Part shown: in pieces, positions 18,169-61,957 of the stretch
Numbering within the stretch: the first letter of the stretch is position 1
Layout of the letters: every line of letters starts with the position of its first letter
Assembly: GCF_937876535.1 (NCBI RefSeq)
Contig: NZ_CALFHZ010000014.1
Location: 1,343-65,342, forward strand
Length of the DNA stretch: 64,000 nt
Direction of reading: 5' to 3'
DNA from: an uncultured Thiothrix sp.
GTDB lineage: Bacteria > Pseudomonadota > Gammaproteobacteria > Thiotrichales > Thiotrichaceae
Notes under the pieces: model-generated
Databases searched by the model: none
What the model was told of the DNA's origin: nothing
The model's input: only the letters and a program-made list of their open reading frames with translations
Made by a program: the position numbers and the translations under genes

Positions 18169-21100
18169 CTAGACCTTTACCTCAGCTTGAACTACTGTTT
18201 TTGAGGACTCTTCTTGAATTTTTTCAGGGAAGATTTTCTTCACCACCAAGAAGAATAAAGGTGCAAAAAAGATCCCTAAAATGGTAGCAGCCATCATACC
18301 CCCTAACACACCCGTACCAACTGCATGCCGACTTCCAGCCCCTGCTCCAGTGCTCAAAACCAACGGCAATACGCCTAAAATAAAAGCAAAAGAAGTCATG
18401 AGAATCGGACGCAAACGAATGCGTACCGCCTCCAAAGTAGCTGGAATTAAGGCATAGCCTTGTTTAAGCAGATTGCGTGCAAATTCGACAATCATAATTG
18501 CATTCTTAGCAGCTAAACCAATGGTGGTGAGTAAACCAACTTGGAAATACACATCATTATTTAAACCACGAATATCGGTGGCTAGTACCGCACCTAACAC
18601 CCCTAGTGGAACGACTAAAATCACTGCAAACGGAATCGACCAGCTTTCGTATAAGGCTGCGAGTGCTAAAAACACCACTAAGACGGATAAAGCATAGAGC
18701 AAAGGAGCCTGAGCACCTGATTTAGCCTCCTGATAAGATAAGCCAGTCCACTCATAACCAATCCCTTCCGGTAATTTACCGACTAGATCAGCCACAATCT
18801 GCATAGCAGTGCCGGAACTGATGCCATCCGCAGGTGCACCATTCACCTCTACCGAACTCACGCCATTAAAACGTTCTAAGAGGGGTGGCCCCTTGGTCCA
18901 ACTGCCTTTTGAGAAACTCGAAAACGGCACCATATCGCCCGCTGTATTTTTAACGAACCAACGATCTAAATCTTCCGGCATCATCCGGCTAGTCGCTTCA
19001 CCTTGCAGATAGACTTTCTTAACTCGCCCACGATCAATAAAATTGCTCACATACGAGCCACCCCAAGCGGTTGAAAGGGTATCATTGATCGTATTGATGG
19101 AAATCCCCATTGCACTCGCTTGAAGCACATCAATATCGACTTGATATTGGCTACTGTCGTCCATGCCATTCGCCCTTACCGCCGTTAAACGTGGATCTTG
19201 CGAAGTAGCTTTGATGAACTCATCCCGTGCTTTCATTAAAGCCTCATGGCCTAAACCCGCACGATCTTGAATCTCGACCGAAAAACCTGCGGAATTCCCC
19301 AAACCGCGCACGGCAGGTGGAGCATTTACCACTACCCGCGCCTCTTGAATGGCACGCAACTTACCAGAAGCACGTTTGGCAATCGCTTGTGCGGTCTGAT
19401 CCGGCCGCTTACGCTGATCCCAATCGACTAAGCGCACAAATAAGCGCGCCACATTTTGCGCATTCCCTGCGGTACCAACTCCACCCACTGCCATCACCGC
19501 ACTGAGAGTTTCTTTTTCATTCTCTAAAAAATACTTTTCGACTTTAGCAACCACCTTTAAAGTGTTTTCTTGCGTCGCTCCAGCAGGTAAACGTACTTGG
19601 ACAAATAAAGTGCCTTGGTCTTCATCCGGTAAGAAAGAAGTCGGTAAACGCACAAATAAATAGCTCATCAGCCCAATAATTAGAAAATACACCAGCACAT
19701 AACGTGTTGGCTTATTGAGCATTCCACCAACCATTGCTTGATAGCGCTGACTAGAACGATTGAAACCTCGATTAAACCAACCAGCCCAGCCTGTTTTATC
19801 TTTTACATCGCTCGCTTTTAGAAGGCTGGCACATAAAGCGGGCGTCAGAATGAGTGCTACCCCCACCGACAGAGTAATCGCCGAAACCAAGGTAATAGAG
19901 AACTGTCGATAGATCACGCCAGTTGAGCCACCAAAGAAAGCCATCGGCACAAATACTGCAGCCAAAACTAAGGCAATCCCAATCAGAGCGCCAGTGATTT
20001 GCCGCATGGATTTACGCGTCGCTTCGCGGGGCGATAACCCTTCGTCATGCATTAAGCGTTCGACGTTCTCCACTACCACAATTGCATCATCTACCAACAG
20101 ACCAATCGCCAAGACCATTGCAAACATGGTGAGGGTATTAATCGAATAACCAAACATATTCAAAATGGCCAAAGTGCCCAGTAAAACAATCGGCACGGTA
20201 ATTGCTGGAATTAAAGTCGCGCGGAAGCTTTGTAAGAACACAAACATGACGATAAAAACTAAGACCATCGCCTCAGCCAAAGTCACTAATACGCCTTCAA
20301 TTGAGATTTTAATAAAAGGCGAGGCATCATAGGTAATGATGGCAGTAAGACCTTTTGGGAAATAAGCCTCTAATTCTTTCAGTTTGTCTTTAACGGCTTC
20401 TGCGGTAGTTAAAGCATTCGCACCACTGGCTAAAGTAACAGATAAACCACCTGAAGGTTTGCCACCAATCCGTGATACCACATCATAGCTTTCACTCCCA
20501 AGCTCTACACGGGCAATATCTGCTAAGCGCACTACCCCACCGGTGGAATTAGCCTTTACCGTAATCGCATTAAATTGCTCAGGGGTTTGTAGCGTAGATT
20601 GAGCGGTGACTGTGACATTGAGGGGTTGATTCGGTACGGCTGGCGTACCACCAAGCTGCCCTGCTGAAACTTGCGTATTCTGCGACTGAATAGCGTTTTT
20701 TACTTCAGTCGTGGTGATTTTATACGTACTCATTTTCAGTGGATCGAGCCAAATCCGCATCGCATAAGGTGAGCCGAAAATTTGCGTACTACCGACCCCT
20801 TCCACACGGCTAAGAGGGTCTTGAATATTAGTGGCAATATAATCAGCAATATCGGTCTGGCTCATACTGCCATCTTCAGAGATAAAGCCAATAATCTGCA
20901 AGAAGCCACTCGAACTCTTACTCACTCGTGTACCTTGTTGCTGTACCGCAGCCGGTAACTGCGGGAGCGCTAGCTGGAGCTTATTTTGCACTTCAACCTG
21001 AGCTAAATCAGGATCGGTATCCGCAGAAAAGCTCAAATCAACCCTAGAGCTACCTGCCGAGCTACTCGTGGAAGCAATATATTGCAAACCATCTAAGCCA

Positions 21101-21318
21101 GTCATTTTCTGCTCAATGATTTGTGTCACCGAATCCTCGACGGTCTTAGCAGAAGCACCAGGGTAAGAGGCAGAGACAGAAATCGTGGGTGGAGCAATAT
21201 CGGGATATTGTGCAATCGGAAGTTTGGAGATAGATAAAACACCCGCTAACATCACTATAATAGCAATGACCCAAGCGAATATCGGTCGGTCAATAAAAAA
21301 TAAGGACATGCTCGCCAT
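18169..21318 (-). CDS. RND efflux permease, AcrB/MexB (HAE1) type
   Basis: 1049 aa with the canonical N-terminus FFIDRPIFAWVIAI and 12-TM topology. No adaptor or outer-membrane factor gene is adjacent. Confidence 0.95.
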   Translation of the reverse strand: MASMSLFFIDRPIFAWVIAIIVMLAGVLSISKLPIAQYPDIAPPTISVSASYPGASAKTVEDSVTQIIEQKMTGLDGLQYIASTSSSAGSSRVDLSFSADTDPDLAQVEVQNKLQLALPQLPAAVQQQGTRVSKSSSGFLQIIGFISEDGSMSQTDIADYIATNIQDPLSRVEGVGSTQIFGSPYAMRIWLDPLKMSTYKITTTEVKNAIQSQNTQVSAGQLGGTPAVPNQPLNVTVTAQSTLQTPEQFNAITVKANSTGGVVRLADIARVELGSESYDVVSRIGGKPSGGLSVTLASGANALTTAEAVKDKLKELEAYFPKGLTAIITYDASPFIKISIEGVLVTLAEAMVLVFIVMFVFLQSFRATLIPAITVPIVLLGTLAILNMFGYSINTLTMFAMVLAIGLLVDDAIVVVENVERLMHDEGLSPREATRKSMRQITGALIGIALVLAAVFVPMAFFGGSTGVIYRQFSITLVSAITLSVGVALILTPALCASLLKASDVKDKTGWAGWFNRGFNRSSQRYQAMVGGMLNKPTRYVLVYFLIIGLMSYLFVRLPTSFLPDEDQGTLFVQVRLPAGATQENTLKVVAKVEKYFLENEKETLSAVMAVGGVGTAGNAQNVARLFVRLVDWDQRKRPDQTAQAIAKRASGKLRAIQEARVVVNAPPAVRGLGNSAGFSVEIQDRAGLGHEALMKARDEFIKATSQDPRLTAVRANGMDDSSQYQVDIDVLQASAMGISINTINDTLSTAWGGSYVSNFIDRGRVKKVYLQGEATSRMMPEDLDRWFVKNTAGDMVPFSSFSKGSWTKGPPLLERFNGVSSVEVNGAPADGISSGTAMQIVADLVGKLPEGIGYEWTGLSYQEAKSGAQAPLLYALSVLVVFLALAALYESWSIPFAVILVVPLGVLGAVLATDIRGLNNDVYFQVGLLTTIGLAAKNAIMIVEFARNLLKQGYALIPATLEAVRIRLRPILMTSFAFILGVLPLVLSTGAGAGSRHAVGTGVLGGMMAATILGIFFAPLFFLVVKKIFPEKIQEESSKTVVQAEVKV

Positions 21319-21381
21319 CCACGCAAAACCTAGGTAATGCGTGGCAGTTTAAAGCTTTCAGCGGGTACGAACAAACCTTAG

Positions 21382-24267
21382 CTATTTTCCTAGGGTATAC
21401 AGTGCTGCGGATAAAGCATGTTGAGTGAAATCAATCCGCAGCGTGCTATTCGTGGTACTTTGGCGTAAACCGCCCTCAGCCCAGGCTAAATTGGGTAATA
21501 CACTGGCATCACGCGCCTGTACGGTTTGTTTATCTAAGAAAGCAAAGCCTAATTCACAGGCCTGTTGATAGCGTTCAGTACGGAGCTGATCCTTGGTTTG
21601 TCGAGCGATATTTAGAGCCACAGCTACGGCCTCTAAATAAACTGCTGTCATATAATCAGCACGCCCCTGTTGTTGGCGGGTCGTGAAACCACCATCGAGT
21701 TGTGATTGATACTCCAACACCCAATCCACTAAAGCAAAAATATTCACCGCTAATTCACGTTTAGGCTCGAGCTGCCAACAAGCACCTAGACCTTGTACCA
21801 TCCAACTGACTAAATCAGCGCGGCGCTTGTATTGGCTACGATGTTGATAATAGCTTAGTGCTTTCATCCATTTGGTGCGTTCGATAGGCGTGATACCTGC
21901 CTTTGCAGCTAAAGCTAAAGCCATTAATACTTGCCCACCAATATAATCTTGATAAGGCTCATCATTAACTGCCCGGCTATCAGTCGCGTGGATAAAACAA
22001 AGCACACGCCCATGTGGATCAATTGCCTGCCATAAGACTTGCGCTAAATTTTGTGCCAGTTGATTGTCTTCTAAGCTCAGTGACTGCTGAGCACTTAAAG
22101 CCATTAATAGCAAAGCACTGCCTGCAACTGTGTCATTTTTAACTTCCTCGCTAGAACTTGCTTCTGAAAGCCAAAGTTTCTCAGGCGTTTTGCGCAGACC
22201 ACTTTTGAGGAAGTTTAAACAGGCTATAAGTTGAGCGTCCTCAATGGTACTTAATTGAGCTTGTTGCGCACGTGTGAGCACCCACAAGGTATGCGCTGTA
22301 CGTACCTTATCTTGAACCTGCTGCAGCTTATTGCTAAACGGGAAATAGTAGAAATAGAACGAACCATCTTCTAAGCGTTGACGCTGAATATAACTGGCCC
22401 ACAAACCTGCTAAAGCTGGAACTTGCTGCGATTCAATCTGCTTAAGCTCGGTGCGTGGGAAAGCCTTCTGCATACGATAGACTTGATGACCATCATCGAG
22501 CCAAGAGCTGCAATCATACCGTAGCCAAGCATAAGGCGGGCGCGTAATTCCGGCTTTATCCAAGACCTCAGCTACATAAGCCTTTTCATCGTAATTAAAT
22601 AGCACCGGTACATCGGGCAGTAAAATCCCAGTTTTATCTCCTTGATGTACCATCAAAGCTTGTTCGCAGAAGCGGACTGGATTCATAACCTCTTCTGGGC
22701 TATACGCACCTAACTCCAAAGGTGCATGCAATAAATAAATTTTTATAACGAATTGATCGACATTCTCAGCATTCAATTGTTTAGCAAAGCGCTGATCCGC
22801 TAACACCGCTTCTGCCAAAATTTGCACATCTTGATCTAAGTTTTTAATGCTTTTACCCATACAGCCTTGGAGCTGGCCTTTGAACAGCACTGAAATATAC
22901 AAAGCATCTAATGATAGGCATAAATCAGCCGGTAATTCAGTCGTATCTGTAGGTATCGTTTGGGTAATCTGTGCTTTTATTAGAGTACGCGCGCGCTGGG
23001 TGATTAAACGGGCAATGGCAACTGACTCGAACCATTGAATTTTATTAGGATCAAGCGCAACCCCAGTCGGTTGCCATTTCACTTCCTCTTCTACATATTT
23101 GAACACATCATGACGATAGAGTGTGTAAGGCTCAAACGAGACCAATTGCGCATTTTTATAGAAGGCATGATTAAACTGTTGGCCTGCAGTCGCTAAACCC
23201 GGCATCCGTGGTAAAGCACCGCCCATTTTAGTAGGGCGCTCTTGACTACGGACTACAATCCCATAGCGATCATTATCTAACTCACCTACGGTACAAGCCT
23301 CTAATTTAGAAAAGAAAGTGACTGCAATGGCACTCTCGGCTAAGAGTTTTAAACCTTGCTCACCGCGTGGCAAACGACGTGCAGTTTGCCAACAGGCATG
23401 TACAATATCTTGGCTTGGGCTAAAGCAACGCTCCCCCGGGAAATGCCAAAAACCATCACGGGCATGGCGCAAATGAATCTGATCCTTCTGCCGTAAACTA
23501 ATAAAGCAACCACCTTGATGTACATAAGTTTGGTCAAGTTGCTCAGGCGCTTGCAAAAGCTGCCCAGTGCTTAAATATTCAGTTAGCACAGTACGGGCTA
23601 ATACCGTAGGGCTTAAACCTTCAGGTGCTTTGTTACTATGCCAAGGCAACTGGTGTTCTAAATAATATTTGGTGGGGTTTTGTAGAACTTTAGGCTCAGA
23701 ATCCATCCGTGGACTGACATCGTGATCAATATCAAACACGGTTTCCATGTGGTAGCCCTGCTCTTGCATTAAGCCAAAGCCACCATACCAACCAAAGCGC
23801 ACTAAACAAATGCCACCCTCTACCCGAAAGCCATCAGCCTCTAGAGTATCTCGGCATTTTTGCATTGAAATCCCTGAACTGACCGAATCGTCAATAATAA
23901 TCACTGGCTCATCACGATTAATGCGCCCTTCGATCAATTTCAGTGAGCCGTGTGGCTTACGCTCTTTACGCACTAATAAAGCTTCATAACGCCCACCACC
24001 TTGCAGCACACAAGCTGTCACTAAGGGGATTGCAGTAGTGCCATAAGTGGCTATTTGTCGACCTTCAAATTTACTTAATAAATCGAGTAAACAAGCTGCA
24101 GCTAGTTGGATACCTTCGTGAGTTAGTGAAACCGCTAAGGAATTAAGCATCCAGCGCCCAAAGGTACCGTCACGCGATAAAATCGGTTGGGTGGGGGTAC
24201 GAAATAAAATGCCATCTTGCAGAATGAGGGTAAGTAAGCGCTCTTTTTTTTCAGCTAGGGTCAGCAT
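21382..24267 (-). CDS. Large multidomain protein: type I phosphoribosyltransferase, then a degenerate AMMECR1-like domain, then an AMMECR1 domain, then an alpha/alpha-toroid (prenyltransferase/squalene-cyclase-repeat-like) domain
   Basis: The PRPP loop is PVIIIDDSVSSGISM (aa ~120-135). AMMECR1 signatures are LQGCMG, ADQRF, GILLPDV and LDKAGI (aa ~465-600). A weaker copy lies at aa ~250-400 (GGCFISLRQ, RYGIVV, GGALPRM). The C-terminus has Q..(L/E)DG(S/G)F repeats. Domain calls are by motif recognition only. Confidence 0.6.
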   Translation of the reverse strand: MLTLAEKKERLLTLILQDGILFRTPTQPILSRDGTFGRWMLNSLAVSLTHEGIQLAAACLLDLLSKFEGRQIATYGTTAIPLVTACVLQGGGRYEALLVRKERKPHGSLKLIEGRINRDEPVIIIDDSVSSGISMQKCRDTLEADGFRVEGGICLVRFGWYGGFGLMQEQGYHMETVFDIDHDVSPRMDSEPKVLQNPTKYYLEHQLPWHSNKAPEGLSPTVLARTVLTEYLSTGQLLQAPEQLDQTYVHQGGCFISLRQKDQIHLRHARDGFWHFPGERCFSPSQDIVHACWQTARRLPRGEQGLKLLAESAIAVTFFSKLEACTVGELDNDRYGIVVRSQERPTKMGGALPRMPGLATAGQQFNHAFYKNAQLVSFEPYTLYRHDVFKYVEEEVKWQPTGVALDPNKIQWFESVAIARLITQRARTLIKAQITQTIPTDTTELPADLCLSLDALYISVLFKGQLQGCMGKSIKNLDQDVQILAEAVLADQRFAKQLNAENVDQFVIKIYLLHAPLELGAYSPEEVMNPVRFCEQALMVHQGDKTGILLPDVPVLFNYDEKAYVAEVLDKAGITRPPYAWLRYDCSSWLDDGHQVYRMQKAFPRTELKQIESQQVPALAGLWASYIQRQRLEDGSFYFYYFPFSNKLQQVQDKVRTAHTLWVLTRAQQAQLSTIEDAQLIACLNFLKSGLRKTPEKLWLSEASSSEEVKNDTVAGSALLLMALSAQQSLSLEDNQLAQNLAQVLWQAIDPHGRVLCFIHATDSRAVNDEPYQDYIGGQVLMALALAAKAGITPIERTKWMKALSYYQHRSQYKRRADLVSWMVQGLGACWQLEPKRELAVNIFALVDWVLEYQSQLDGGFTTRQQQGRADYMTAVYLEAVAVALNIARQTKDQLRTERYQQACELGFAFLDKQTVQARDASVLPNLAWAEGGLRQSTTNSTLRIDFTQHALSAALYTLGK

Positions 24268-24294: not shown

Positions 24295-24327
24295 GAAAAC
24301 TGGCTAGTAACCTGTTGTTACTAGCCA
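24295..24327 (-). terminator. Terminator-like hairpin after the repeat-protein gene
   Basis: TGGCTAGTAAC, a 5-nt loop, GTTACTAGCCA (perfect 11-bp stem), followed on the minus strand by GTTTTC. Confidence 0.55.
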
Positions 24328-24351
24328 ATGTCTACTAGATCGATTTAAAAA

Positions 24352-25305
24352 TTAATCGAGCGGCATCATTTCAGCGGGAACAATATCACAGAGAATTTCA
24401 AATTTAATCTCTGGACGAATTTCCCATTTAGTTTCACCTTTAACCTCGTGCTTAATTTCAGGCTTGATCTCTGGCTTCACTTCCTTAATTACTTCATATT
24501 TAATTTCTGCCTTGATCTCGTGCTTAATTTCAGGTTTCACTTCAAGCACAACTTCGTACATTATTTCCTGTTTAACCTCTGGGCGAATATCACAAACCAC
24601 TTCTGGTCTGACTTCTGGTTTCACCTCAGGTTTAACTTCTGGCTTAACTTCAATAATGATTTCGGGTTTAATTTCTGGTTTTACTTCAGGACGTACTTCG
24701 GGTTTAACCTCTGGCTTAATCTCAACAATAATCTCTGGCTTGATTTCCGGTTTTACTTCAGGACGTACTTCGGGCTTAACCTCAGGCTTAATCTCAACAA
24801 TAATCTCTGGCTTGATTTCCGGTTTTACTTCAGGACATACGTCAGGATTTACTTCAGGCCTAATCTCAGGTTGAACTTCAATGATAATTTCGGGCTTGAT
24901 CTCCGGTTTTACCTCGGGTTTAACCTCCGGCTTAATCTCAACAATAATCTCTGGCTTGATTTCCGGTTTTACTTCAGGCTTAACCTCGGGTTTGACTTCC
25001 GGACGAATATCACAAGCAACTTCCGGTTTAATCTCTGGGCGAATTTCACAACCACCTTTGCCAGAACCTCCTGTGCCCTTCCCAGAGCCATCGGTAGAAC
25101 CACCCTTACCAGAGCCGCTGTTATCGCCGCATAAGGAAGACAAGAGTTGTTGTAAGATATTGAAAAACTGTGGTAATTGCCCACCAAGATTGAAGCAATT
25201 CAAACTACTAGAGAATTGACTGGCGCCACTTGCACTGGCAGATAAACTCGAATTTTGGGAAGCGTAGGAGCTTCCAACATTATTATTGCTTATTCTGTTA
25301 ATCAT
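24352..25305 (-). CDS. Repeat protein: a Ser/Asn/Gly-rich N-terminus followed by about 58 consecutive [KRIV]-[PIV]-E-[VI] tetrads (PEVK-like)
   Basis: GGAG lies 4 nt upstream of the ATG and a hairpin lies downstream. The non-repetitive N-terminal 85 aa exists only in this frame. Glu occupies every fourth residue through most of the ~230-aa repeat region (Asp or other residues substitute at a few positions). Cys is interspersed (CEIRPE, ACDIRPE, VCPEVK, VCDIRPE, LCDIVP). Confidence 0.7.
   Translation of the reverse strand: MINRISNNNVGSSYASQNSSLSASASGASQFSSSLNCFNLGGQLPQFFNILQQLLSSLCGDNSGSGKGGSTDGSGKGTGGSGKGGCEIRPEIKPEVACDIRPEVKPEVKPEVKPEIKPEIIVEIKPEVKPEVKPEIKPEIIIEVQPEIRPEVNPDVCPEVKPEIKPEIIVEIKPEVKPEVRPEVKPEIKPEIIVEIKPEVKPEVRPEVKPEIKPEIIIEVKPEVKPEVKPEVRPEVVCDIRPEVKQEIMYEVVLEVKPEIKHEIKAEIKYEVIKEVKPEIKPEIKHEVKGETKWEIRPEIKFEILCDIVPAEMMPLD
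24355..25050 (-). repeat. 12-nt periodic coding tandem repeat with a higher-order 72-nt unit
   Basis: 72-nt units start at 24689, 24761 and 24833 and are near-identical. The module CTCAACAATAATCTCTGGCTTGATTTCCGGTTTTAC recurs at least three times. Confidence 0.85.
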
Positions 25306-40135: not shown

Positions 40136-40510
40136 ATGAAATTCTGGACCGGTGTCATCACTGATAAAGTGCAAGAATCAAAAAGTTTTTATGTAGACTT
40201 ATTTGGCTGTGAAATCTTATATGAAGACGAGGGGGGCTGGTTTGTACTCTTGGGTTTAGCTGAGAGTGAGTTAGGTTTTATGCAACCAGAACTGACTACT
40301 CAAGCCCCGATTTTTCGTGCCGCCTTTCAGGGGCAAGGCATGTGGATTGCCATTGATGTAGTAGATGCAGAGGCTGAATATGCCCGCCTAACAGCATTAG
40401 GTGCGCCGATTGAAGTGGCATTGCGCGAAGAGCCTTGGGGCGATCGTCATTTTGTCCTACGCGACCCGAATGGGATTGGGGTTGATGTAGTGCAGCGGGT
40501 TGCTGCTTAA
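40136..40510 (+). CDS. VOC (glyoxalase/bleomycin-resistance) family protein
   Basis: 124 aa with a single paired beta-alpha-beta-beta-beta module pattern and PWGDRHFVLRDPNG. Confidence 0.75.
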   Translation: MKFWTGVITDKVQESKSFYVDLFGCEILYEDEGGWFVLLGLAESELGFMQPELTTQAPIFRAAFQGQGMWIAIDVVDAEAEYARLTALGAPIEVALREEPWGDRHFVLRDPNGIGVDVVQRVAA

Positions 40511-42222
40511 AGACAATAAACTAATAAACCGATAATGAGGAGCAACTCCAACCCCGCTAACCATTTCCAAAACTTCAAAGGATTACGTTCTAGTAGCGGG
40601 CGTTGGCGTTGATTAGCCAGTAAGCCCTCATTCGGGCGGGTTAAATCGGCAATAAACTCGGACAACACCTCATAACGCTTATCGGGATTCGGCTGAGTGG
40701 CTTTTTCCAAGGCCGCATCCACCCATTCCGGCACTTTGGGGTTATGCCAAGCGGCAGGCGTGTAATTAAATTTATGCTTGCTGGCCTTTTCCGGTTCAAT
40801 TTCGCCAAAGGGCAATTGTTCGGTCAGCATTTCGTAGGCAATCACGCCCAAGGAAAAAATATCCGAGCGATTGGTACCGCGTGCGCCCTGAAAATATTCA
40901 GGTGCGGAATAACTCGCCGTGCCGACAATATGGTTATGCTGCAACACGGTTTGCACCTCCATTAAACCCGCTATGCATGTCGAACCAAAGTCGATGATTT
41001 TTAAAGTATTATGCTGATCAATCAACACATTATCCGGCTTTAAATCCTGATGAATCATCTCCAAGCGATGCATAGCCCGCAAACCCCGCGCCATCTGATC
41101 CACCGTCGCCCGCACCTGTGCAATGCTGGGGTCGGGATGATCGAGCATCCATTGGCGTAAGGTCTGCCCTGCCACATATTCAACCACACTATACAAGCAA
41201 GTACGTGCCCGAGCATCGCGGGTTTGCAGCTTAATCAAATGCGGCGAATTAAGGCGTTGTGCTACCCATTCTTCATGCAAAAACAGGTCAATATAAGCCA
41301 GATCATCATTAAAATTTTGCGAAGGGGTTTTCAGTACTACTTGCTGATTTTGGTTGAACGTGTCTTCGGCTAAATAAACTTGGCTGCGAGACGTGGCGTT
41401 CAATTCGCGTAGAATTTTATAGCCATCTAGCACCTGCCCCGCTTTTAAATCGGGCGGAAACGGTAATTGGCTGAGCTGCTGATAAAACAACTCACGATTC
41501 ACCTCCGGTAAGGAGTCAATGCGCACAATTTGGCAGGTAATATTATCTTGGCTATTGGCTTCTAGTGCGGCTTGGACAATCTGCTCGGCGCAAGTTTGTA
41601 GATCAGGATAAGCAGTTAATTGTTGTGCTAAAGCGCTATCACTCAATACATCATGCACCCCATCGGTGGTGAGCACGAACACATCGCCTTGGCTCAATTC
41701 GAGGGTGCGAAAATCAATTTCTAAATGCGGCTCAATCCCCAAGGCGCGGGCTAAATAACTTTGTTGATTTTTAAATGGAATACGGTGATCGGTGGTCAGA
41801 CACTCCAGAGCGCCCTTTTGCCAGCGGTAAATGCGACTATCACCAATATGCAACACATAAGCGCTGTGGGATTTTAAAATCAAGGCGCTAAAGGTGGTGG
41901 CGAGGCTGCCTGTTTCGCCGTATTGGCGTTGACCTTGGCTATAGAGCCAGAGATTTAACGCACTTAAAACTTTTTGTGCGGCGTGTTTCACCGTCCACGA
42001 ATCGGGCGTGCTGGCGTAATCCTCTAGAAATTGCCGAACCGCGACTTCGCTGGCTTGTTTGCCGCCTGTACTGGCGCTCACGCCATCAGCAATAGCAAGA
42101 GCCATACCCTTGCTATCTAAACTTACACCCGACGGTAGCCAAGCACTGTAAAAATCCTCATTGACCGATTTCACACCTGCGATTGAGGCTTGTCCGAGAC
42201 TGACCGTGAGGGTGGCTTTCAA
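40507..42222 (-). CDS. Bifunctional PP2C phosphatase / Ser-Thr protein kinase with a C-terminal TM anchor
   Basis: PP2C motifs are NEDF, IADGVS, TTDGVHD and SQDNITC. Kinase motifs are VVLKTP, HQDLKPDNVLI and IIDFGS. The hydrophobic tail is LLLIIGLLVYCL. The TTG start lies 1 nt after the narK stop. Confidence 0.85.
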   Translation of the reverse strand: MKATLTVSLGQASIAGVKSVNEDFYSAWLPSGVSLDSKGMALAIADGVSASTGGKQASEVAVRQFLEDYASTPDSWTVKHAAQKVLSALNLWLYSQGQRQYGETGSLATTFSALILKSHSAYVLHIGDSRIYRWQKGALECLTTDHRIPFKNQQSYLARALGIEPHLEIDFRTLELSQGDVFVLTTDGVHDVLSDSALAQQLTAYPDLQTCAEQIVQAALEANSQDNITCQIVRIDSLPEVNRELFYQQLSQLPFPPDLKAGQVLDGYKILRELNATSRSQVYLAEDTFNQNQQVVLKTPSQNFNDDLAYIDLFLHEEWVAQRLNSPHLIKLQTRDARARTCLYSVVEYVAGQTLRQWMLDHPDPSIAQVRATVDQMARGLRAMHRLEMIHQDLKPDNVLIDQHNTLKIIDFGSTCIAGLMEVQTVLQHNHIVGTASYSAPEYFQGARGTNRSDIFSLGVIAYEMLTEQLPFGEIEPEKASKHKFNYTPAAWHNPKVPEWVDAALEKATQPNPDKRYEVLSEFIADLTRPNEGLLANQRQRPLLERNPLKFWKWLAGLELLLIIGLLVYCL

Positions 42223-53988: not shown

Positions 53989-55161
53989 ATGAAATACTTT
54001 CCACTAATATTGGGGCGTTCGATTTTATTATTTATTGGATTAATAATCGATATTTATATTGCGCACATAACTAGCATTGAAGCCAGAGGTGAGTTTCATC
54101 TAATTCTAACCAGCACAACACTTTTAAGCAGTATATTTTTATTTGGACTACATAACTCAATAGTTGTAAAAGTTGCAAATACTAAAAACCTTTATTATTT
54201 ATTTGCGCATATTATTATTATTACACCACTTATTATTGCAATGCCATTTTTTATTTATCTTATTCCACAAAAATTTCTGGGTGCCAGATACGACATTATT
54301 TCAATAATATGTTTTTTATTAACAATGATAATTCTATTTAGATCTTTTTTTCTAGGAATTAGTAATGATATTTATTATATTTTCCTGATGCTTTCCGATA
54401 AAATATTATTATTATTTTTTTTGGCCTTTTACTCGAGTGAAATTTATCAAGAAGAAATATTTATTGATAAACTTTACTTATACTCTCTAATAATCAGCTT
54501 AACTATGGGGTTCCTATTAATAATCAAGTTAAAAATAAACAATTTAATAATTATAAGGAAAGAAAAGATAAATTTTACTGAGATAACAAGCTTCTCTGCA
54601 AAAAACTTCTTTGGCGATCTTTTTTTTCAGCTAAACTATAGAGTTGGAGTTTACTTTATAGCTTATTCAGAAGGAAATGAATCAATATCGCTATACATGG
54701 CAGTTTTCTTGATTTCTCAACTACCTCAACAAATTCCTCTTTTTTTAAGTACCTTGCTATTCAGAGATTCAGCTCAAGATTTTAACTCATCACGAACAAT
54801 AAAAATTGCCAGCTATTCATTTTTGATTGCACTTATATTATCTGCCATACTGTATGTTTTTATAGATAAAATAACGTTGTTATTTTATGGCAATCAATAC
54901 GCACATTCAACAAAGTATATTTCTTACTTTTTATTATCCAGTATACTACTATCTCCAACCTTAGTCATAGCAAACTCCCTCCTTGGCAAGAAATGCTCTT
55001 TTGAATATATGTTAATCTTTGGATTGGGTTTTTTTGTGACTATTGTTTCAATATCTTTAAGTAAACTCACATCCTCAATAGAAATCGCAGCCTCTGCATT
55101 AGCAGTTAGTGCATTTTCCTCATTAACTTTTTCCATACTATTTTTGCGAAAGAATGCTTAA
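53989..55161 (+). CDS. wzx: Polysaccharide flippase-like multipass membrane protein (Wzx/MOP-type)
   Basis: 390 aa, very hydrophobic and AT-rich, and the first gene of the glycan cluster. The assignment rests on topology and context only. Confidence 0.5.
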   Translation: MKYFPLILGRSILLFIGLIIDIYIAHITSIEARGEFHLILTSTTLLSSIFLFGLHNSIVVKVANTKNLYYLFAHIIIITPLIIAMPFFIYLIPQKFLGARYDIISIICFLLTMIILFRSFFLGISNDIYYIFLMLSDKILLLFFLAFYSSEIYQEEIFIDKLYLYSLIISLTMGFLLIIKLKINNLIIIRKEKINFTEITSFSAKNFFGDLFFQLNYRVGVYFIAYSEGNESISLYMAVFLISQLPQQIPLFLSTLLFRDSAQDFNSSRTIKIASYSFLIALILSAILYVFIDKITLLFYGNQYAHSTKYISYFLLSSILLSPTLVIANSLLGKKCSFEYMLIFGLGFFVTIVSISLSKLTSSIEIAASALAVSAFSSLTFSILFLRKNA

Positions 55162-56416
55162 ATCTATCCATAATAATTTTTTTATTCATTTATTTTTCTA
55201 TATAAACATAATATATAGCTTTTTATGGTTCACACTTGACCGAATCGCAGGCTTGCCAATAACTTATATTCCATATATATTATTACTATTAGTATCTATT
55301 TTTTTTTCTATTACTTTTAAAAAAAAAAGAATCACATATATTAAAAAGTCTGATTTAATGATTATCTTTCTTTTTTTATATCTAACGTTTCAACCTTTAT
55401 TAATTTTAGCAAGTGGTAATTTCTTCTACTTAAATGAATTTTTTAAAGATTATATATTGATAACATACTATATTATGGGGTACTTTTGTATAGTGCATAT
55501 ATTATCATCAATACATCAAAAAAAAGAAATTATCGAAAAAATCATCTATTTCACAATGTTAATATGTATTATTGGAACTCTCCGATTTTTCATAATTGAT
55601 AATTACCTCCTAGAGTCTCCACCATCTTACTTTTTTAATATTATACCTGTAATGGAATATCGTTTTATTGAGGTGTTAATTTTTTTATTCGGATTTTCCT
55701 TTTCAATTAATTCATACTTCTCAAAAAAAGATAGAAAAAGTTTAGCTCAAGCGATGTTCTTTTTAATTTTGATGCTTTACTGTGGTAGCAGAACAGGTTT
55801 ACTCGCCATAGTAGTAGCTCTATCTTTCAATATTTTTAAAGAAAAACAAATGAATTTAACTCTATTTATAACAGTTTTTTTTGCGTCTATCTTATTAATA
55901 GATAGCATTACATCACAAGTAATAGTCAATAGATTAGAAAGGCTAAGCGAAATATCCTTATTTACTCAATTAAATCTTGATCTAGCCATCGAAGAAGATA
56001 GAGATGTTAGAAGAATACTTTACATTAAGGGTGGAATCGAAATGTTTTTGAATGATTTTTGGTTTGGCACTGGATTAGGTTCTTTTCAAGAAGCATTTCC
56101 TACATACTTAATGGCACAAGTAGGAGTTGAAGAAGTGGCGAGGCCACATAATATGTATGTCAGCATAGCAGCAACATCAGGTGTTTTTGGAGTATTTTTC
56201 TTATTCGGATGGATACTTGTTTTAATAAAAGGCAGCTTTAATAAAAATTCTTTAATCGATAAATCACTAGTAACCTTTGGCATTTCCATACTTGTGCTAT
56301 CGTCTGGATATGATTTAGAAACCAGTCCAATATTTTGGATATTCATGGCTATCTTAGTGGGTTTATCTAGAAACAGATCATTAATTAACAATTTCGTATA
56401 TTTGAAAAAAAATTAA
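55154..56416 (+). CDS. wzy: O-antigen polymerase/ligase-family membrane protein (Wzy_C-like)
   Basis: Multipass membrane protein with a large loop containing GSRTG and RPHNMYV, typical of the O-antigen ligase/polymerase family. Confidence 0.6.
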   Translation: MLKSIHNNFFIHLFFYINIIYSFLWFTLDRIAGLPITYIPYILLLLVSIFFSITFKKKRITYIKKSDLMIIFLFLYLTFQPLLILASGNFFYLNEFFKDYILITYYIMGYFCIVHILSSIHQKKEIIEKIIYFTMLICIIGTLRFFIIDNYLLESPPSYFFNIIPVMEYRFIEVLIFLFGFSFSINSYFSKKDRKSLAQAMFFLILMLYCGSRTGLLAIVVALSFNIFKEKQMNLTLFITVFFASILLIDSITSQVIVNRLERLSEISLFTQLNLDLAIEEDRDVRRILYIKGGIEMFLNDFWFGTGLGSFQEAFPTYLMAQVGVEEVARPHNMYVSIAATSGVFGVFFLFGWILVLIKGSFNKNSLIDKSLVTFGISILVLSSGYDLETSPIFWIFMAILVGLSRNRSLINNFVYLKKN

Positions 56417-56437
56417 TTAATTATTAATGGGAATTAT

Positions 56438-57583
56438 ATGTTTTATTTATTAACAACAAGTATCATATTAATATTATCAACTTGGTTATTTTATCCAATT
56501 TCTCTTAGTATTTTGTACTTATTAACACGTACTAAACGGCAGACTAAAAAAGAAATAAGTAATAAAATAAATAAGTGCGCAACCATAATAATAGCCTCCC
56601 ACAACGAATCAAACAGAATAGAAAATCGAATAAGGAATATATATGCTTCAAGCTTGGAAAACAAGATTGAAGTAATAGTCGCATCTGATGGATCATCAGA
56701 TAACACTGTTGATATCGTAAAAGCATTATCAAAGGAGTTTACCTCATTACTATTAGTTGAATCGAAAAAACAAATAGGAAGGGCGAGAATTCATAATAAG
56801 GCAAAAAATATTGCTAAGTATGACATATTGATTTTTACAGATGCAGATACAACATTTGATGAACATTCAATCAAGAATATCACAGCTGCTTTTCTTGATG
56901 AAAATATTGGTTTTGCATCAGGAAAGATATTTTATACTAACCAATTAGATGGTATTACCAACTCCTCTGGTTTGTACTGGGAATTCGAACTTTTTTTGAG
57001 AGGAATGGAGTCTTCGCTTGGAATCCTTGCATCAGGCTCTGGACCATTTTGTGCTGTGAGAAAACATCTTTATAAAGATATACCATCTACCGGCGATGTA
57101 GATTTTACTACACCTATAGATGTAGTTATGCAAGGATATAAATGCGTTTATGTTTCTGACGCCATTGCTTTTGATTTACTACCAGATACTCCTAAGCGGG
57201 AATTTAAATCAAGAGTAAGAATGACTTCAAAAAACTTTCATGGCATCTTATCTCGAATTGGGCTAGAGGGCGTTTTTAAGCATCCAATATATGCTCTGAG
57301 TTTATTTTTTCATAAAATTCTCAGATGGTTAACCCCATTTTTTTTAGTATCACTATTAATAAGTAATCTTGCATTAATATCAAACGGTGAGCTATTTTTA
57401 ACATTGTTGATCATTCAACTTACTTTATATTTTTCTGCCATAGCAGGCTTTTTCTATCCCTCTCTTCCAGTGATCGGTAAGGTATACGCTTTTCTATTAG
57501 CTAATGCAGCATTTGCCATTGGAGTAGTTAATGCCTTAACTGGAAAAATTCCTTCTCTATATAATCCTATCAATAAAACATAA
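56438..57583 (+). CDS. Family 2 glycosyltransferase with N- and C-terminal TM segments
   Basis: The GT-A fold motifs are IIIASHNE, ASDGSSDNT and the DxD as FTDAD. The C-terminal region is hydrophobic. Confidence 0.8.
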   Translation: MFYLLTTSIILILSTWLFYPISLSILYLLTRTKRQTKKEISNKINKCATIIIASHNESNRIENRIRNIYASSLENKIEVIVASDGSSDNTVDIVKALSKEFTSLLLVESKKQIGRARIHNKAKNIAKYDILIFTDADTTFDEHSIKNITAAFLDENIGFASGKIFYTNQLDGITNSSGLYWEFELFLRGMESSLGILASGSGPFCAVRKHLYKDIPSTGDVDFTTPIDVVMQGYKCVYVSDAIAFDLLPDTPKREFKSRVRMTSKNFHGILSRIGLEGVFKHPIYALSLFFHKILRWLTPFFLVSLLISNLALISNGELFLTLLIIQLTLYFSAIAGFFYPSLPVIGKVYAFLLANAAFAIGVVNALTGKIPSLYNPINKT

Positions 57584-58293
57584 TGAAAAATCAAAAAACT
57601 GAAGTCGATTTAGTGTTTGAACGCTATTCCAAACGAAATGTAGGGAATCGTTACAACATATTAAATGCTGATGTATGGAAAAGTACTTATGAACGCAATC
57701 AAAGTATTCTAAAAATATTAGCGCGATATTGCGATACAAATCTAGCACAAAAAACATTATTAGAGGTAGGTTGTGGGAATGGGAGAAATTTGCTAGATTG
57801 TTTGCGCTTTGGTTTCACACCGTCACTGCTAACAGGTATAGAGCTTCTTCCTGAGCAAGTGAACATTGCAAAAAATATATTACCCTCTTCTGTAAATATA
57901 TATAAAGGTGATGCTTTATCCATACAGATTCCAATAAACAGTCAAGATATAGTTTTTCAATCCGTTGTTTTTTCATCTTTATTAGATAATAATTTTCAAT
58001 CTGCGTTAGCAATTAAGATGTGGCAATGGCTAAAACCCGGAGGTGGAATACTCTGGTATGACTTTATATTCAACAACCCATCCAACCCCGATGTTCGTGG
58101 CGTTCCATTGAAACGAGTACGTGAACTTTTTCCTGATGGAAAGCTGATCGTAAAACGAGTCACATTAGCACCACCAATTAGTCGTCGTGTATGCAAAATT
58201 CACCCAAATCTTTACCATCTGTTTAACATGATCCCTTGGTTACGTACTCACGTACTCATTTGGATAGAAAAACCAAAAGTAAGTGTACCATGA
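57583..58293 (+). CDS. Class I SAM-dependent methyltransferase
   Basis: Motif I is [12 protein letters not shown]. The start overlaps the GT2 stop. Confidence 0.75.
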
Positions 58294-60064: not shown

Positions 60065-61957
60065 ATGTCTAAAATAAAAAATATATTTTTTCTGCCCCGC
60101 TGGCAAAAACGTCTCGTCATTATTGGCTTAGATATTGTCCTTTTGCCATTTGCACTCTGGCTAAGCTATGCTTTACGGTTAGGCACTTGGACTCCCAAAC
60201 TAAATGATGGCATCTGGTTAATAATTATTGTACCAGTTATTACCATCCCTATTTTCATTCGACTTGGTCTATATAGGGCAATTATTCGTTTTTTAGGTCA
60301 TAAAGCTATTATAACAGCTTTACAGGGCGTCATTTTCTCAACTTTCGGACTAGTAGTTATAACCTATTTATTTAATCTTAAAGGAATACCCAGTTCGATT
60401 TATCCTATTTACTTAGGAACTGCCTTTCTATTAGTAGGTGCGAGTCGTTATATGATACGACGCTACTATAATTTCTTGTACCACAAAGATAACCGTATTC
60501 CAGTGGCCATTTATGGTGCTGGCTCTTCAGGTGCTCAATTAGCTCAAGCGCTATTTAGCAGCCCTGAGTATGCACCTTTATTCTTTATTGATGATGATAA
60601 AACATTACAGGGGGCGTATATACATAGCCTTAAAGTTTACCCTCTGAATAAGTTTCAAGAGTTAATTGAACTACATGATATTAAGCAAGTATTGCTGGCT
60701 GTTCCCTCAGCCTCAGCTAGTCGCCGCCAAGAAATATTACAAAGTCTAGAGCAATACCCTGTCTATGTGCGCTCTATACCAGGTATGGCCGATTTAGTGT
60801 CTGGTAAAAGTAGCATTGAAGAAATTAGAGAAATCGAAATTGATGAATTACTTGGGAGACAAACAGTTAATCCTCAACAAGAATTGCTAGAGCATTGTAT
60901 CAAAAATAAAAATATTTTAGTGACTGGTGCTGGTGGATCAATCGGTTCGGAACTTTGTCGACAAATTTTACAACTTCAACCCGAATCCTTAATTTTATTT
61001 GAACTTTCAGAGTTTAGTCTTTACCAAATTGAAAAAGAACTAAGTGAGCTGATTGAAAGAGATAAATCTACCATCAAGCTTGTTGCATTATTAGGCTCTG
61101 TTCAAGACCAAGCGCGCTTAGAATCTGCTTTGACTGACTACCATGTTCATACTCTCTACCATGCAGCTGCTTATAAGCATGTACCCTTGGTAGAACATAA
61201 TCCTATTGAAGGTATAAAAAACAATGCACTTGGTACATGGTGTGCTGCCTCTGCTGCTTTTAATGCAAAAATAGATCACTTTGTCTTAATTTCTACAGAT
61301 AAAGCAGTCCGTCCTACTAATGTCATGGGGGCTACCAAACGTATTGCTGAATTAGTTTTACAAGGCTTTGCCCAAAGAGAGAGTAAAACACGCTTTGCGA
61401 TGGTGCGATTTGGTAATGTGCTAGGTTCTTCTGGCTCAGTAGTTCCTTTATTCAGACGGCAAATAAAAACAGGGGGTCCCATCACCGTTACACATCCTGA
61501 TATCATTCGTTACTTCATGACTATTCCCGAAGCTGCTCAATTGGTTATTCAGGCAGGTGCAATGGCAACAGGTGGAGAAGTATTTCTTTTGGATATGGGT
61601 ACGCCAGTGAAAATTGTCGACTTAGCAAAGCGCATGATTCGCTTAAGTGGTTTAGAAATAAAAGATGAACAGAATCCAGATGGAGATATAACAATTCAAT
61701 TCACTGGCTTACGCCCTGGTGAAAAACTCTATGAGGAATTACTCATTGAAAGTAATGCAGAAGCGACTTCGCACCCAAGGATATTTAAGGCTAATGAAAG
61801 CTGTCTACCTTGGAATGAAACTGAAAACTTAATCAAACGGATGATTCAAGCTACGCAACAAACAAATCTAATATATGCTTACGATTTATTAGAAAAATAT
61901 GTGTCTGGCTATCAAAAATTCATACATAAACCTGTTATTACTTCCCAGGCCGCATAA
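60065..61957 (+). CDS. CapD/PglF/WbpM-family membrane-anchored UDP-HexNAc 4,6-dehydratase
   Basis: Four N-terminal TM helices are followed by two Rossmann segments (IYGAGSSG and VTGAGGSIGSEL) and AAYKHVP. Confidence 0.9.
   Translation: MSKIKNIFFLPRWQKRLVIIGLDIVLLPFALWLSYALRLGTWTPKLNDGIWLIIIVPVITIPIFIRLGLYRAIIRFLGHKAIITALQGVIFSTFGLVVITYLFNLKGIPSSIYPIYLGTAFLLVGASRYMIRRYYNFLYHKDNRIPVAIYGAGSSGAQLAQALFSSPEYAPLFFIDDDKTLQGAYIHSLKVYPLNKFQELIELHDIKQVLLAVPSASASRRQEILQSLEQYPVYVRSIPGMADLVSGKSSIEEIREIEIDELLGRQTVNPQQELLEHCIKNKNILVTGAGGSIGSELCRQILQLQPESLILFELSEFSLYQIEKELSELIERDKSTIKLVALLGSVQDQARLESALTDYHVHTLYHAAAYKHVPLVEHNPIEGIKNNALGTWCAASAAFNAKIDHFVLISTDKAVRPTNVMGATKRIAELVLQGFAQRESKTRFAMVRFGNVLGSSGSVVPLFRRQIKTGGPITVTHPDIIRYFMTIPEAAQLVIQAGAMATGGEVFLLDMGTPVKIVDLAKRMIRLSGLEIKDEQNPDGDITIQFTGLRPGEKLYEELLIESNAEATSHPRIFKANESCLPWNETENLIKRMIQATQQTNLIYAYDLLEKYVSGYQKFIHKPVITSQAA

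Follow-up and report, generated by a model that had tools for sequence, protein, structure and literature searches.

AMMECR1 is a protein domain conserved from archaea to humans and tied to a human X-linked syndrome, and Burroughs and co-workers (cited in PMC7159879) are said to have predicted, in JBC in 2019, a role of AMMECR1-Memo systems in the modification of nucleotide bases or isoprenoids. RGChG and DxRa motifs have been proposed to form the active site of the domain (Balaji and Aravind, PMC2034487), and in 2019 it still ranked among the top-priority uncharacterised archaeal families (PMC6393860), which agrees with the view of an earlier note on the DNA analysed here that its biochemical function is unresolved. 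That DNA is a stretch of 64,000 nucleotides from an uncultured Thiothrix sp. (contig NZ_CALFHZ010000014.1; hereafter the window); judged by its nearest relatives, the source is Thiolinea/Thiothrix-like and belongs to the Thiotrichaceae. The gene in question encodes a protein of 961 residues in which four parts follow each other in this order: an orotate phosphoribosyltransferase (OPRTase)-like type I phosphoribosyltransferase (PRTase), two AMMECR1 modules, the first degenerate and the second intact, and an (α/α)6 toroid. At a probability of roughly 0.62, we propose from comparative sequence analysis that this fusion marks, as its signature enzyme, a conserved system so far undescribed that modifies an adjacent tandem-repeat protein, and that the pump gene on its other side is incidental. 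Literature searches found nothing on the four-domain fusion, on E-[V/I] repeat proteins or on their association, in agreement with the earlier suggestion of an uncharacterised system.

Three described systems are close enough for comparison. AmmeMemoRadiSam (TIGR04335/04336/04337) likewise has an AMMECR1 domain with RGCxG and DxRa motifs, and a radical S-adenosylmethionine enzyme (rSAM) to which, in our system, the domain is coupled in most lineages. However, the 961-residue enzyme scored 79.2 bits on TIGR04335 and did not reach the cut-off of 99, no Memo family was present among the Pfam-annotated genes of 9 annotated loci, and the partner rSAM is a B12-binding class B enzyme (TIGR03975) and not a PflA-like activase. 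Moreover, AMMECR1 is here fused to a PRTase, a second, degenerate AMMECR1 and a toroid, and has a repeat protein as partner. In proteusin pathways (polytheonamide, with PoyA and the B12-rSAMs PoyB/C) an rSAM of the same family stands beside a ribosomally made substrate with many modified sites. The repeat proteins described here, in contrast, match no NCBIfam family and so have no NHLP or Nif11 leader; they are tandem-repeat proteins of 100–350 residues, the four-domain enzyme has no counterpart in proteusin pathways, and the window locus has no rSAM. The third comparison is with the poly-cyclopropylglycine peptides, which belong to the RiPPs (peptides made on the ribosome and modified after translation) and whose precursors carry a repeat motif that we take to contain Val. 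The likeness lies in enzymes working again and again on a short motif repeated within one precursor (PMC10878394); the rSAM there is of the SPASM type, whereas that of our system binds B12, and the peptides are much shorter and come without PRTase, AMMECR1 or toroid. By these comparisons, the system resembles a RiPP or protein-maturation cluster and is a member of no defined one.

Coupling of the enzyme gene to a repeat-protein gene

At least 827 homologues of the enzyme, mostly full-length, were found, and 571 clusters in a 50%-identity representative set matched it at E ≤ 1e-30, the majority of them 900–1010 residues long; the four-part architecture is therefore not a chance fusion. The system is present in 168 species-level genomes from at least 5 phyla, including the cultured Blastococcus deserti and Mycobacterium sp. 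OAS707. Mean column identity of the enzyme was 62% between Gammaproteobacteria, Acidobacteriota and Omnitrophota, and all four regions were strongly conserved. A plasmid collection yielded a single weak partial match, and the system is thus not plasmid-borne. The PADLOC scan for defence systems gave noise only, and Rfam gave zero matches against the whole window.

Neighbouring genes were compared in dereplicated loci flanked on either side by 2.6 kb or more, 42 of which lie outside the Thiotrichaceae; neighbours were clustered all-against-all after removal of overlapping (shadow) open reading frames (ORFs). In 40 of the 42 loci, an ORF that carries 4 or more E[VI]xP motifs lies on the same strand within 5 kb of the enzyme gene. 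The exceptions were L079 and L053, the latter with a variant repeat (RPIVEVVAE, 7 copies). Within the Thiotrichaceae, the repeat gene stands 73–82 nt upstream of the enzyme gene in all five loci with an upstream flank. Of the 5357 ORFs no more than 5 kb from the enzyme gene, 63 were motif-rich, but of 2788 further away just 1, and this distant one is a second repeat gene. Proteins with E-[V/I]-x-P repeats adjoin the enzyme in Acidobacteriota, Omnitrophota, Alphaproteobacteria, Myxococcota and Actinomycetota, and every lineage examined has a repeat gene of this kind beside the enzyme gene. The repeat gene may lie upstream, downstream or be parted from the enzyme gene by the rSAM gene; such variation in gene order over at least 5 phyla argues for a functional rather than an inherited linkage. 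This survey of loci shows that the enzyme and repeat-protein genes are coupled across phyla and gene orders, and it makes it likely that the repeat protein is the substrate of the enzyme.

The repeats themselves differ widely between lineages: APEIAPEI (L009) and PIPEVAPEIRP in Pyrinomonadaceae, EVVTEVAPE in Blastocatellia, RPIVEVAPxKKRK in Acidobacteriaceae (L080, L085), EIRPIPEIRP in Myxococcota, HPEIAPEISETEPQ in Mycobacterium, SEVITEVAPE in Blastococcus, RPEIRPDV in Alphaproteobacteria and a 29-residue unit containing RPIVEVVAE in Ca. Angelobacter (L053, RPIVEVVAELRQ...). In 59 different repeat proteins, the E-[I/V]-x-P motif used for searching stood in the context [P/T]-E-[I/V]-[A/R/K]-P. 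The period runs from 4 to 29 residues, and the only constants across repeat types and periods are the Glu and the β-branched Val/Ile that follows it.

A B12-binding rSAM of 605–650 residues is encoded directly beside the enzyme, on the same strand, in 42/42 well-flanked loci outside the Thiotrichaceae. It scored 515–539 bits on TIGR03975 ('RiPP maturation radical SAM C-methyltransferase'; cut-off 281.85). An rSAM gene next to the enzyme gene is lacking in the Thiotrichaceae loci, that of the window among them. The window ORFs contained no homologue of the partner rSAM, and the 27 window ORFs scanned with Pfam no radical SAM protein. Repeat protein and four-domain enzyme therefore make up the minimal, universal pair, and the window holds the minimal two-gene form of this widespread pairing. 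In 22 acidobacterial loci, a prolyl-hydroxylase-type oxygenase of ~200 residues precedes the repeat gene (Pfam 2OG-FeII_Oxy_3 in L007 and L009). Seven Ca. Angelobacter loci (L047, L053, L060, L066, L073, L077 and L079) have 1–2 further B12-rSAM paralogues downstream of the enzyme, with about 30% identity to the main partner rSAM. In L009 (2157–6690) and 11–18 other, mostly pyrinomonadacean, loci, small DUF1843 proteins, an rSAM-SPASM enzyme and a carbamoyltransferase are encoded upstream on the same strand; these genes form another RiPP-like set, or else they extend the cluster of 2-oxoglutarate (2OG) oxygenase, repeat protein, rSAM and enzyme.

Table 1. Positions in the window of the genes, domains and other elements discussed (AF2, AlphaFold2)
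Feature	Position	Strand	Basis
Four-domain enzyme gene, 961 aa	21382..24267	(-)	ORF list, Pfam, NCBIfam, AF2, Foldseek, homologue searches
OPRTase-like type I phosphoribosyltransferase domain, residues 1-204	23656..24267	(-)	NCBIfam, profile, Foldseek, PyrE alignment
Degenerate AMMECR1-like module, residues 205-425	22993..23655	(-)	Pfam on slice, invariant residues
Intact AMMECR1 module, residues 426-605	22453..22992	(-)	Pfam, NCBIfam, profile, Foldseek
(α/α)6 toroid, residues 606-961	21385..22452	(-)	Foldseek fold matches
Tandem-repeat protein gene, 317 aa, proposed substrate	24352..25305	(-)	ORF list, repeat analysis
Repeat array, 58 tetrapeptides, residues 86-317	24355..25050	(-)	Tetrad count, DNA periodicity
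13-bp stem-loop followed by GUUUUC, between repeat and enzyme genes	24299..24329	(-)	RNA folding
AcrD/AcrB-type HAE1 RND permease gene, 1049 aa, probable start 21309	18169..21318	(-)	Pfam, NCBIfam

The earlier note had passed over the conserved partner in the window, a tandem-repeat gene 84 nt upstream of the enzyme gene (Table 1) with a GGAG ribosome-binding site 8 nt upstream of it. The N-terminal 85 residues of its product are Ser/Asn/Gly-rich and non-repetitive; the tetrapeptides that follow form a single unbroken register with the consensus P-E-[I/V]-[K/R]. Position 2 is E/D and position 3 is I/V/T in 56 of the 58 tetrads, position 1 is Pro in 37 and position 4 is K/R in 41. The DNA of the array has periods of 12, 36 and 72. 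Pfam returned just a sub-threshold, compositional match to procyclin for this protein and NCBIfam nothing; neither it nor the enzyme has a signal peptide or transmembrane segment. In the Thiotrichaceae repeat proteins (window 24355–25050; L004 9203–9919), cysteines recur periodically where repeats meet (CEIR, CDIR, PDVC), and the N-terminal region is rich in Gly/Ser and includes a hydrophobic helix that is conserved (LLQLxxSL). Both features are absent in other phyla and may relate to the missing rSAM. Antisense to the repeat gene lie a 228-aa ORF (24448–25134(+)) and smaller ORFs (24464–24874 and 24881–25219); these are almost certainly artefacts of repetitive DNA. The minus-strand PE[V/I] frame is the one conserved across phyla.

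The stem-loop between the repeat and enzyme genes has a ΔG of −21.4 kcal/mol (z −4.0; 0/200 shuffles match). Hairpins with unrelated stems stand at the same position in L004 (z −4.8), L011 (z −4.7), L010 (z −2.5) and L001 (z −1.7), and strong hairpins follow the repeat gene also in L006 (z −6.4) and L007 (z −3.4). The hairpins were folded one by one and not from an alignment; a multiple alignment of the intergenic hairpins gave no structural alignment across sub-lineages. The element is probably an attenuator or an mRNA-stabilising element. Repeat gene, hairpin and enzyme gene may be read as one unit, in which the hairpin would favour an excess of substrate mRNA.

Tens of identical cores in one protein also recall the precursors of multi-core RiPPs, the partner rSAM comes from a RiPP-type family, and precursor-first operons typically have a hairpin behind the precursor gene. 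The E-[V/I] units might accordingly be converted and excised as small cofactor- or nucleoside-like molecules, with a dipeptide-derived heterocycle ribosylated by the OPRTase-like domain; the fold and loops of that domain are conserved (see below), and carboxylated heterocycles are what OPRTase-type enzymes normally act on. We consider this unlikely. The neighbourhood has no conserved peptidase, cyclodehydratase or exporter, Thiotrichaceae can dispense with the rSAM, and the variation in spacing and flanks, with periods from 4 to 29, fits recognition of sites on an intact protein, as in the reading that we prefer, better than precise excision.

Domains of the enzyme

An AlphaFold2 (AF2) model of the enzyme, made from a 22-sequence alignment, had a predicted local distance difference test score (pLDDT) of 87 and a predicted template modelling score (pTM) of 0.86. 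Invariance of residues was judged over 22 aligned members throughout. All motifs quoted in the earlier note were found in the protein: VIIIDDSVSSGISM at residue 122, LQGCMG at 466, DQRF at 491, GILLPDV at 547, KAGI at 571, EDGSF at 633 and LDGGF at 857. The four-part architecture read from them proved correct, both by Pfam, NCBIfam and profile matches and by structure (AF2 and Foldseek).

The putative binding loop for phosphoribosyl pyrophosphate (PRPP), VIIIDDSVSSG (VIIIDDSVSSGIS, residues 122–134), follows the pattern of four hydrophobic, two acidic and then small residues ending in S/T-G. The flexible catalytic loop RKERKPHG (residues 100–107) aligns with residues 99–106 of E. coli PyrE, the sequence of which was verified against 1oro_A; R100/K101/K104/H106 correspond to R99/K100/K103/H105, and D126/D127 to D124/D125. 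R100, K101, E102, K104, G107, D126 and D127 are invariant; at position 106, three members have Tyr and most have His. Residues 45–160 matched the NCBIfam pyrE model TIGR00336 at E 2e-13 (50.5 bits, cut-off 106.8), and Pfam Pribosyltran scored 13 bits (cut-off 26.3). A profile built from the family alignment matched OPRTase structures at E 1e-14, and Foldseek against the PDB returned the OPRTases 5hki (TMt 0.78–0.80), 2wns and 2p1z. The earlier PRTase call thus holds for the PRPP loop, the flexible loop and the OPRTase fold, although both family scores stay under their cut-offs. With PyrE the domain has in common the fold (TMt about 0.8), the PRPP loop and the flexible loop R-K-E-x-K-x-H-G, but by our reading of the sequence it has no Lys at the equivalent of K73, its hood region has diverged, and it sits inside a 961-residue protein outside a pyrimidine-pathway context. 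Judged by these matches, the domain is PRTase-like and not a PyrE orthologue, and its catalytic apparatus is intact.

Pfam AMMECR1 (PF01871) scored 70.7 bits on the enzyme (cut-off 25) in two stretches, and Foldseek matched the AMMECR1 structures 1vaj, 1zq7 and 1wsc (E 1e-9 to 1e-7; 1vaj TMt 0.76), so that the earlier assignment of two AMMECR1 modules, the first of them degenerate, was borne out. When residues 200–425 were sliced out, they matched AMMECR1 at E 3e-5 over profile positions 3–143 of 168, with 24 bits against the cut-off of 25. This first module is without the RGCxG cysteine and has invariant motifs of its own (RDGFWHFPGE and MGGALPRMPG). The label 'degenerate' is fair, since the slice matches AMMECR1 but does not have the catalytic cysteine motif. 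The Pfam match of the slice is the single support for a duplication; hhalign of module 1 against module 2 gave no signal (probability 3.8%). The second module carries LQGCMG at residues 466–471 (with C469) and DQRF at 491–494, and G468, C469, G471, D491, R493 and F494 are invariant; by these residues, its AMMECR1 motif set is intact.

The C-terminal domain had been described as a toroid like those of prenyltransferases or squalene cyclases. The (α/α)6 fold was recovered by Foldseek, which listed, with TMt values of about 0.6 throughout, GH76 mannanase, small squalene-hopene cyclases, cellobiose 2-epimerase, YihS and MstE. Prenyltransferase/terpene-cyclase-type toroids (8paj, 8pak, 6sbg) are among the matches, and GH76, cellobiose 2-epimerase and YihS are equally good. 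Pfam, Prenyltrans and SQHop_cyclase included, gave no match to the toroid even at E ≤ 10, and a profile search against solved structures gave no sequence match. As there is no Pfam match, no DxDD motif and no invariant Cys, the domain is not classifiable as a prenyltransferase or terpene cyclase. A search with the toroid alone gave 7 matches, mostly fragments, and it is therefore no named stand-alone family. Its invariant polar residues include R656, H659, Q773, D774, Y775, R810, R815, E879, R919, D920, R944, D946, Q949 and H950.

The resemblance of the toroid to sugar isomerases and epimerases, GH76 and small terpene cyclases would suit an enzyme whose substrate is a metabolite (nucleotide, sugar or isoprenoid), with the repeat protein as a scaffold, tether, regulator or storage polymer. 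The role said to have been predicted for AMMECR1-Memo systems would suit it as well. PRTase-free AMMECR1-toroid lipoproteins that are encoded beside cell-wall genes, with no repeat gene alongside, point the same way. We regard a metabolite as quite unlikely, because the partner rSAM is from a peptide-modifying family, and because the constant Glu and β-branched residue look like a modification site; a pure scaffold would need no such conservation across periods.

The lipoproteins in question were found on the metagenome contig L090 (5152–8754; also L091) as two tandem proteins of ~595 residues with AMMECR1 and toroid, the first of which opens, in translation, with a lipoprotein-type signal. 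The neighbours of the pair are FemAB, Mur-ligase, DegT and hydrolase genes, after which comes an ORF of 90 aa that looks secreted, and one of the L090/L091 proteins has 28% identity to the toroid of the window. Since the pair occurs without PRTase, AMMECR1 plus toroid looks like an evolutionary module, with a second context that is possibly envelope-related.

The neighbouring RND permease

The gene that follows the enzyme gene on the same strand, 63 nt away, encodes a permease of the resistance-nodulation-division (RND) type; the positions and lengths of both ORFs, as well as the gap, are as noted earlier. The permease scored 1250 bits on ACR_tran and 1621.6 bits on TIGR00915 (cut-off 940). 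In relatives the RND protein begins with MSLFFIDRP, so translation here probably starts from the ATG at 21309, and the gap would then measure 72 nt. Of the models, AcrD came closest (1594 bits). Like E. coli AcrD, the permease is a full-length HAE1 protein with no adjacent adaptor, but it lies under the AcrD equivalog cut-off (1854). Downstream of it are genes for GDT1, recO, acpS and cysM.

The earlier note had read the two genes as one operon, in which the enzyme, in the place of the adaptor, makes a small molecule that the orphan pump exports. Several of its observations stand. Among the window ORFs tested, which include all within ~10 kb of the pump, none encodes a membrane-fusion or outer-membrane-factor protein; the genes are on the same strand, 63–72 nt apart; and the 63-nt spacer has no canonical terminator. 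Related Thiolinea/Thiothrix metagenome-assembled genomes at 82–86% identity (L001-L003, L010 and L014) keep the adjacency, with the block repeat gene-enzyme-RND-GDT1-recO-acpS-cysM. Directly behind the enzyme gene, a related RND gene was seen only in the window, L001, L010 and L014 (82–100% identity). It is, however, this whole block that is syntenic in the pump-bearing relatives, as expected from recent common ancestry, that is, from synteny at the genus level. In the Thiotrichaceae loci L004 (59% identity) and L011 (62%) the RND gene is absent downstream of the enzyme, and cbb3 oxidase genes take its place in L004; a related RND gene is present in 0/42 of the dereplicated, well-flanked loci outside the family. 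The neighbourhood survey that had been set beforehand as a check therefore found enzyme and pump unlinked outside genus-level relatives. RND permeases without partner genes, E. coli AcrD for one, are common, so nothing is 'missing' where an adaptor gene was expected.

The spacer also contains a weak sigma-70-like motif (TTGTTC, 17 nt, TAAACT; 21346–21374(-)) that is kept in L001 and L010; it lies below the scan threshold and is our own reading, and it is only a hint. A 7-bp hairpin abuts the start codon of the pump (z −1.8, without statistical weight). Taken together, a synthesis and export module of enzyme and pump is not supported and seems highly improbable to us; we judge the pump an incidental neighbour. 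Adjacency in a single genome had misled the first reading, and comparative context put it right.

Proposed chemistry and remaining features of the window

If the repeat protein is the substrate, each repeat may be a modification site and the protein would be modified iteratively. The universal four-domain enzyme would act on the Glu of the motif. Outside the Thiotrichaceae, the B12-rSAM C-methyltransferase would probably act on Val/Ile, for which Cβ-methylation of Val in polytheonamide is a precedent, and in some Acidobacteriota the prolyl-hydroxylase-type 2OG oxygenase probably acts on Pro. For the enzyme itself, we tentatively suggest that the carboxylate of the invariant Glu is phosphoribosylated by the OPRTase-like domain, with PRPP as donor, and that the AMMECR1 module with C469, together with the toroid, binds or further processes the resulting acyl-ribose ester. 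This suggestion is made because Glu is the sole invariant reactive group of the repeats and displacement of pyrophosphate from PRPP is the sole recognisable chemistry of the enzyme; PRPP-dependent phosphoribosylation of Glu is nevertheless a doubtful assignment.

Several points weigh against the interpretation as a whole. Gene context is the one line of evidence for the enzyme-substrate relation. The PRTase domain stays under the curated cut-offs of pyrE and Pfam, the model of its diverged base-binding region is of low confidence (residues 23–44, pLDDT <50), and the type I PRTases known to us use N-nucleophiles or heterocycles as acceptors, never carboxylates. Structurally, the toroid has enzymes of carbohydrates and terpenoids as its neighbours and not peptide-binding proteins. 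As the rSAM is not adjacent in the window or in other Thiotrichaceae, the RiPP-like label is borrowed from other lineages, and the cluster has neither a conserved RiPP recognition element or leader-peptide family nor a conserved protease or exporter. Finally, co-transcription of enzyme and pump is possible in this organism, given the shared strand, the short gap and the lack of a terminator.

The pairing sets the AMMECR1 active site beside a candidate substrate, the Glu-Val/Ile repeat protein, and a candidate co-substrate, PRPP, and the question of its function becomes directly testable. If the proposal is true, AMMECR1 would gain a first defined biochemical role and substrate, and phosphoribosylation of Glu would be a protein modification independent of nicotinamide adenine dinucleotide (NAD) and, to our knowledge, without precedent. 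With this system, a new class may also be defined, of repeat proteins that are heavily modified or of RiPP-like products.

Two features elsewhere in the window were recorded. At 40507–42222(-), a PP2C phosphatase and a Ser/Thr protein kinase domain are joined in one 571-residue protein. In the region of about 54000–58000 and 60065–61957, a low-GC stretch (27–32%, against about 45% elsewhere) lies near a Polysacc_synt_2 polysaccharide-biosynthesis gene and is probably a surface-polysaccharide island.

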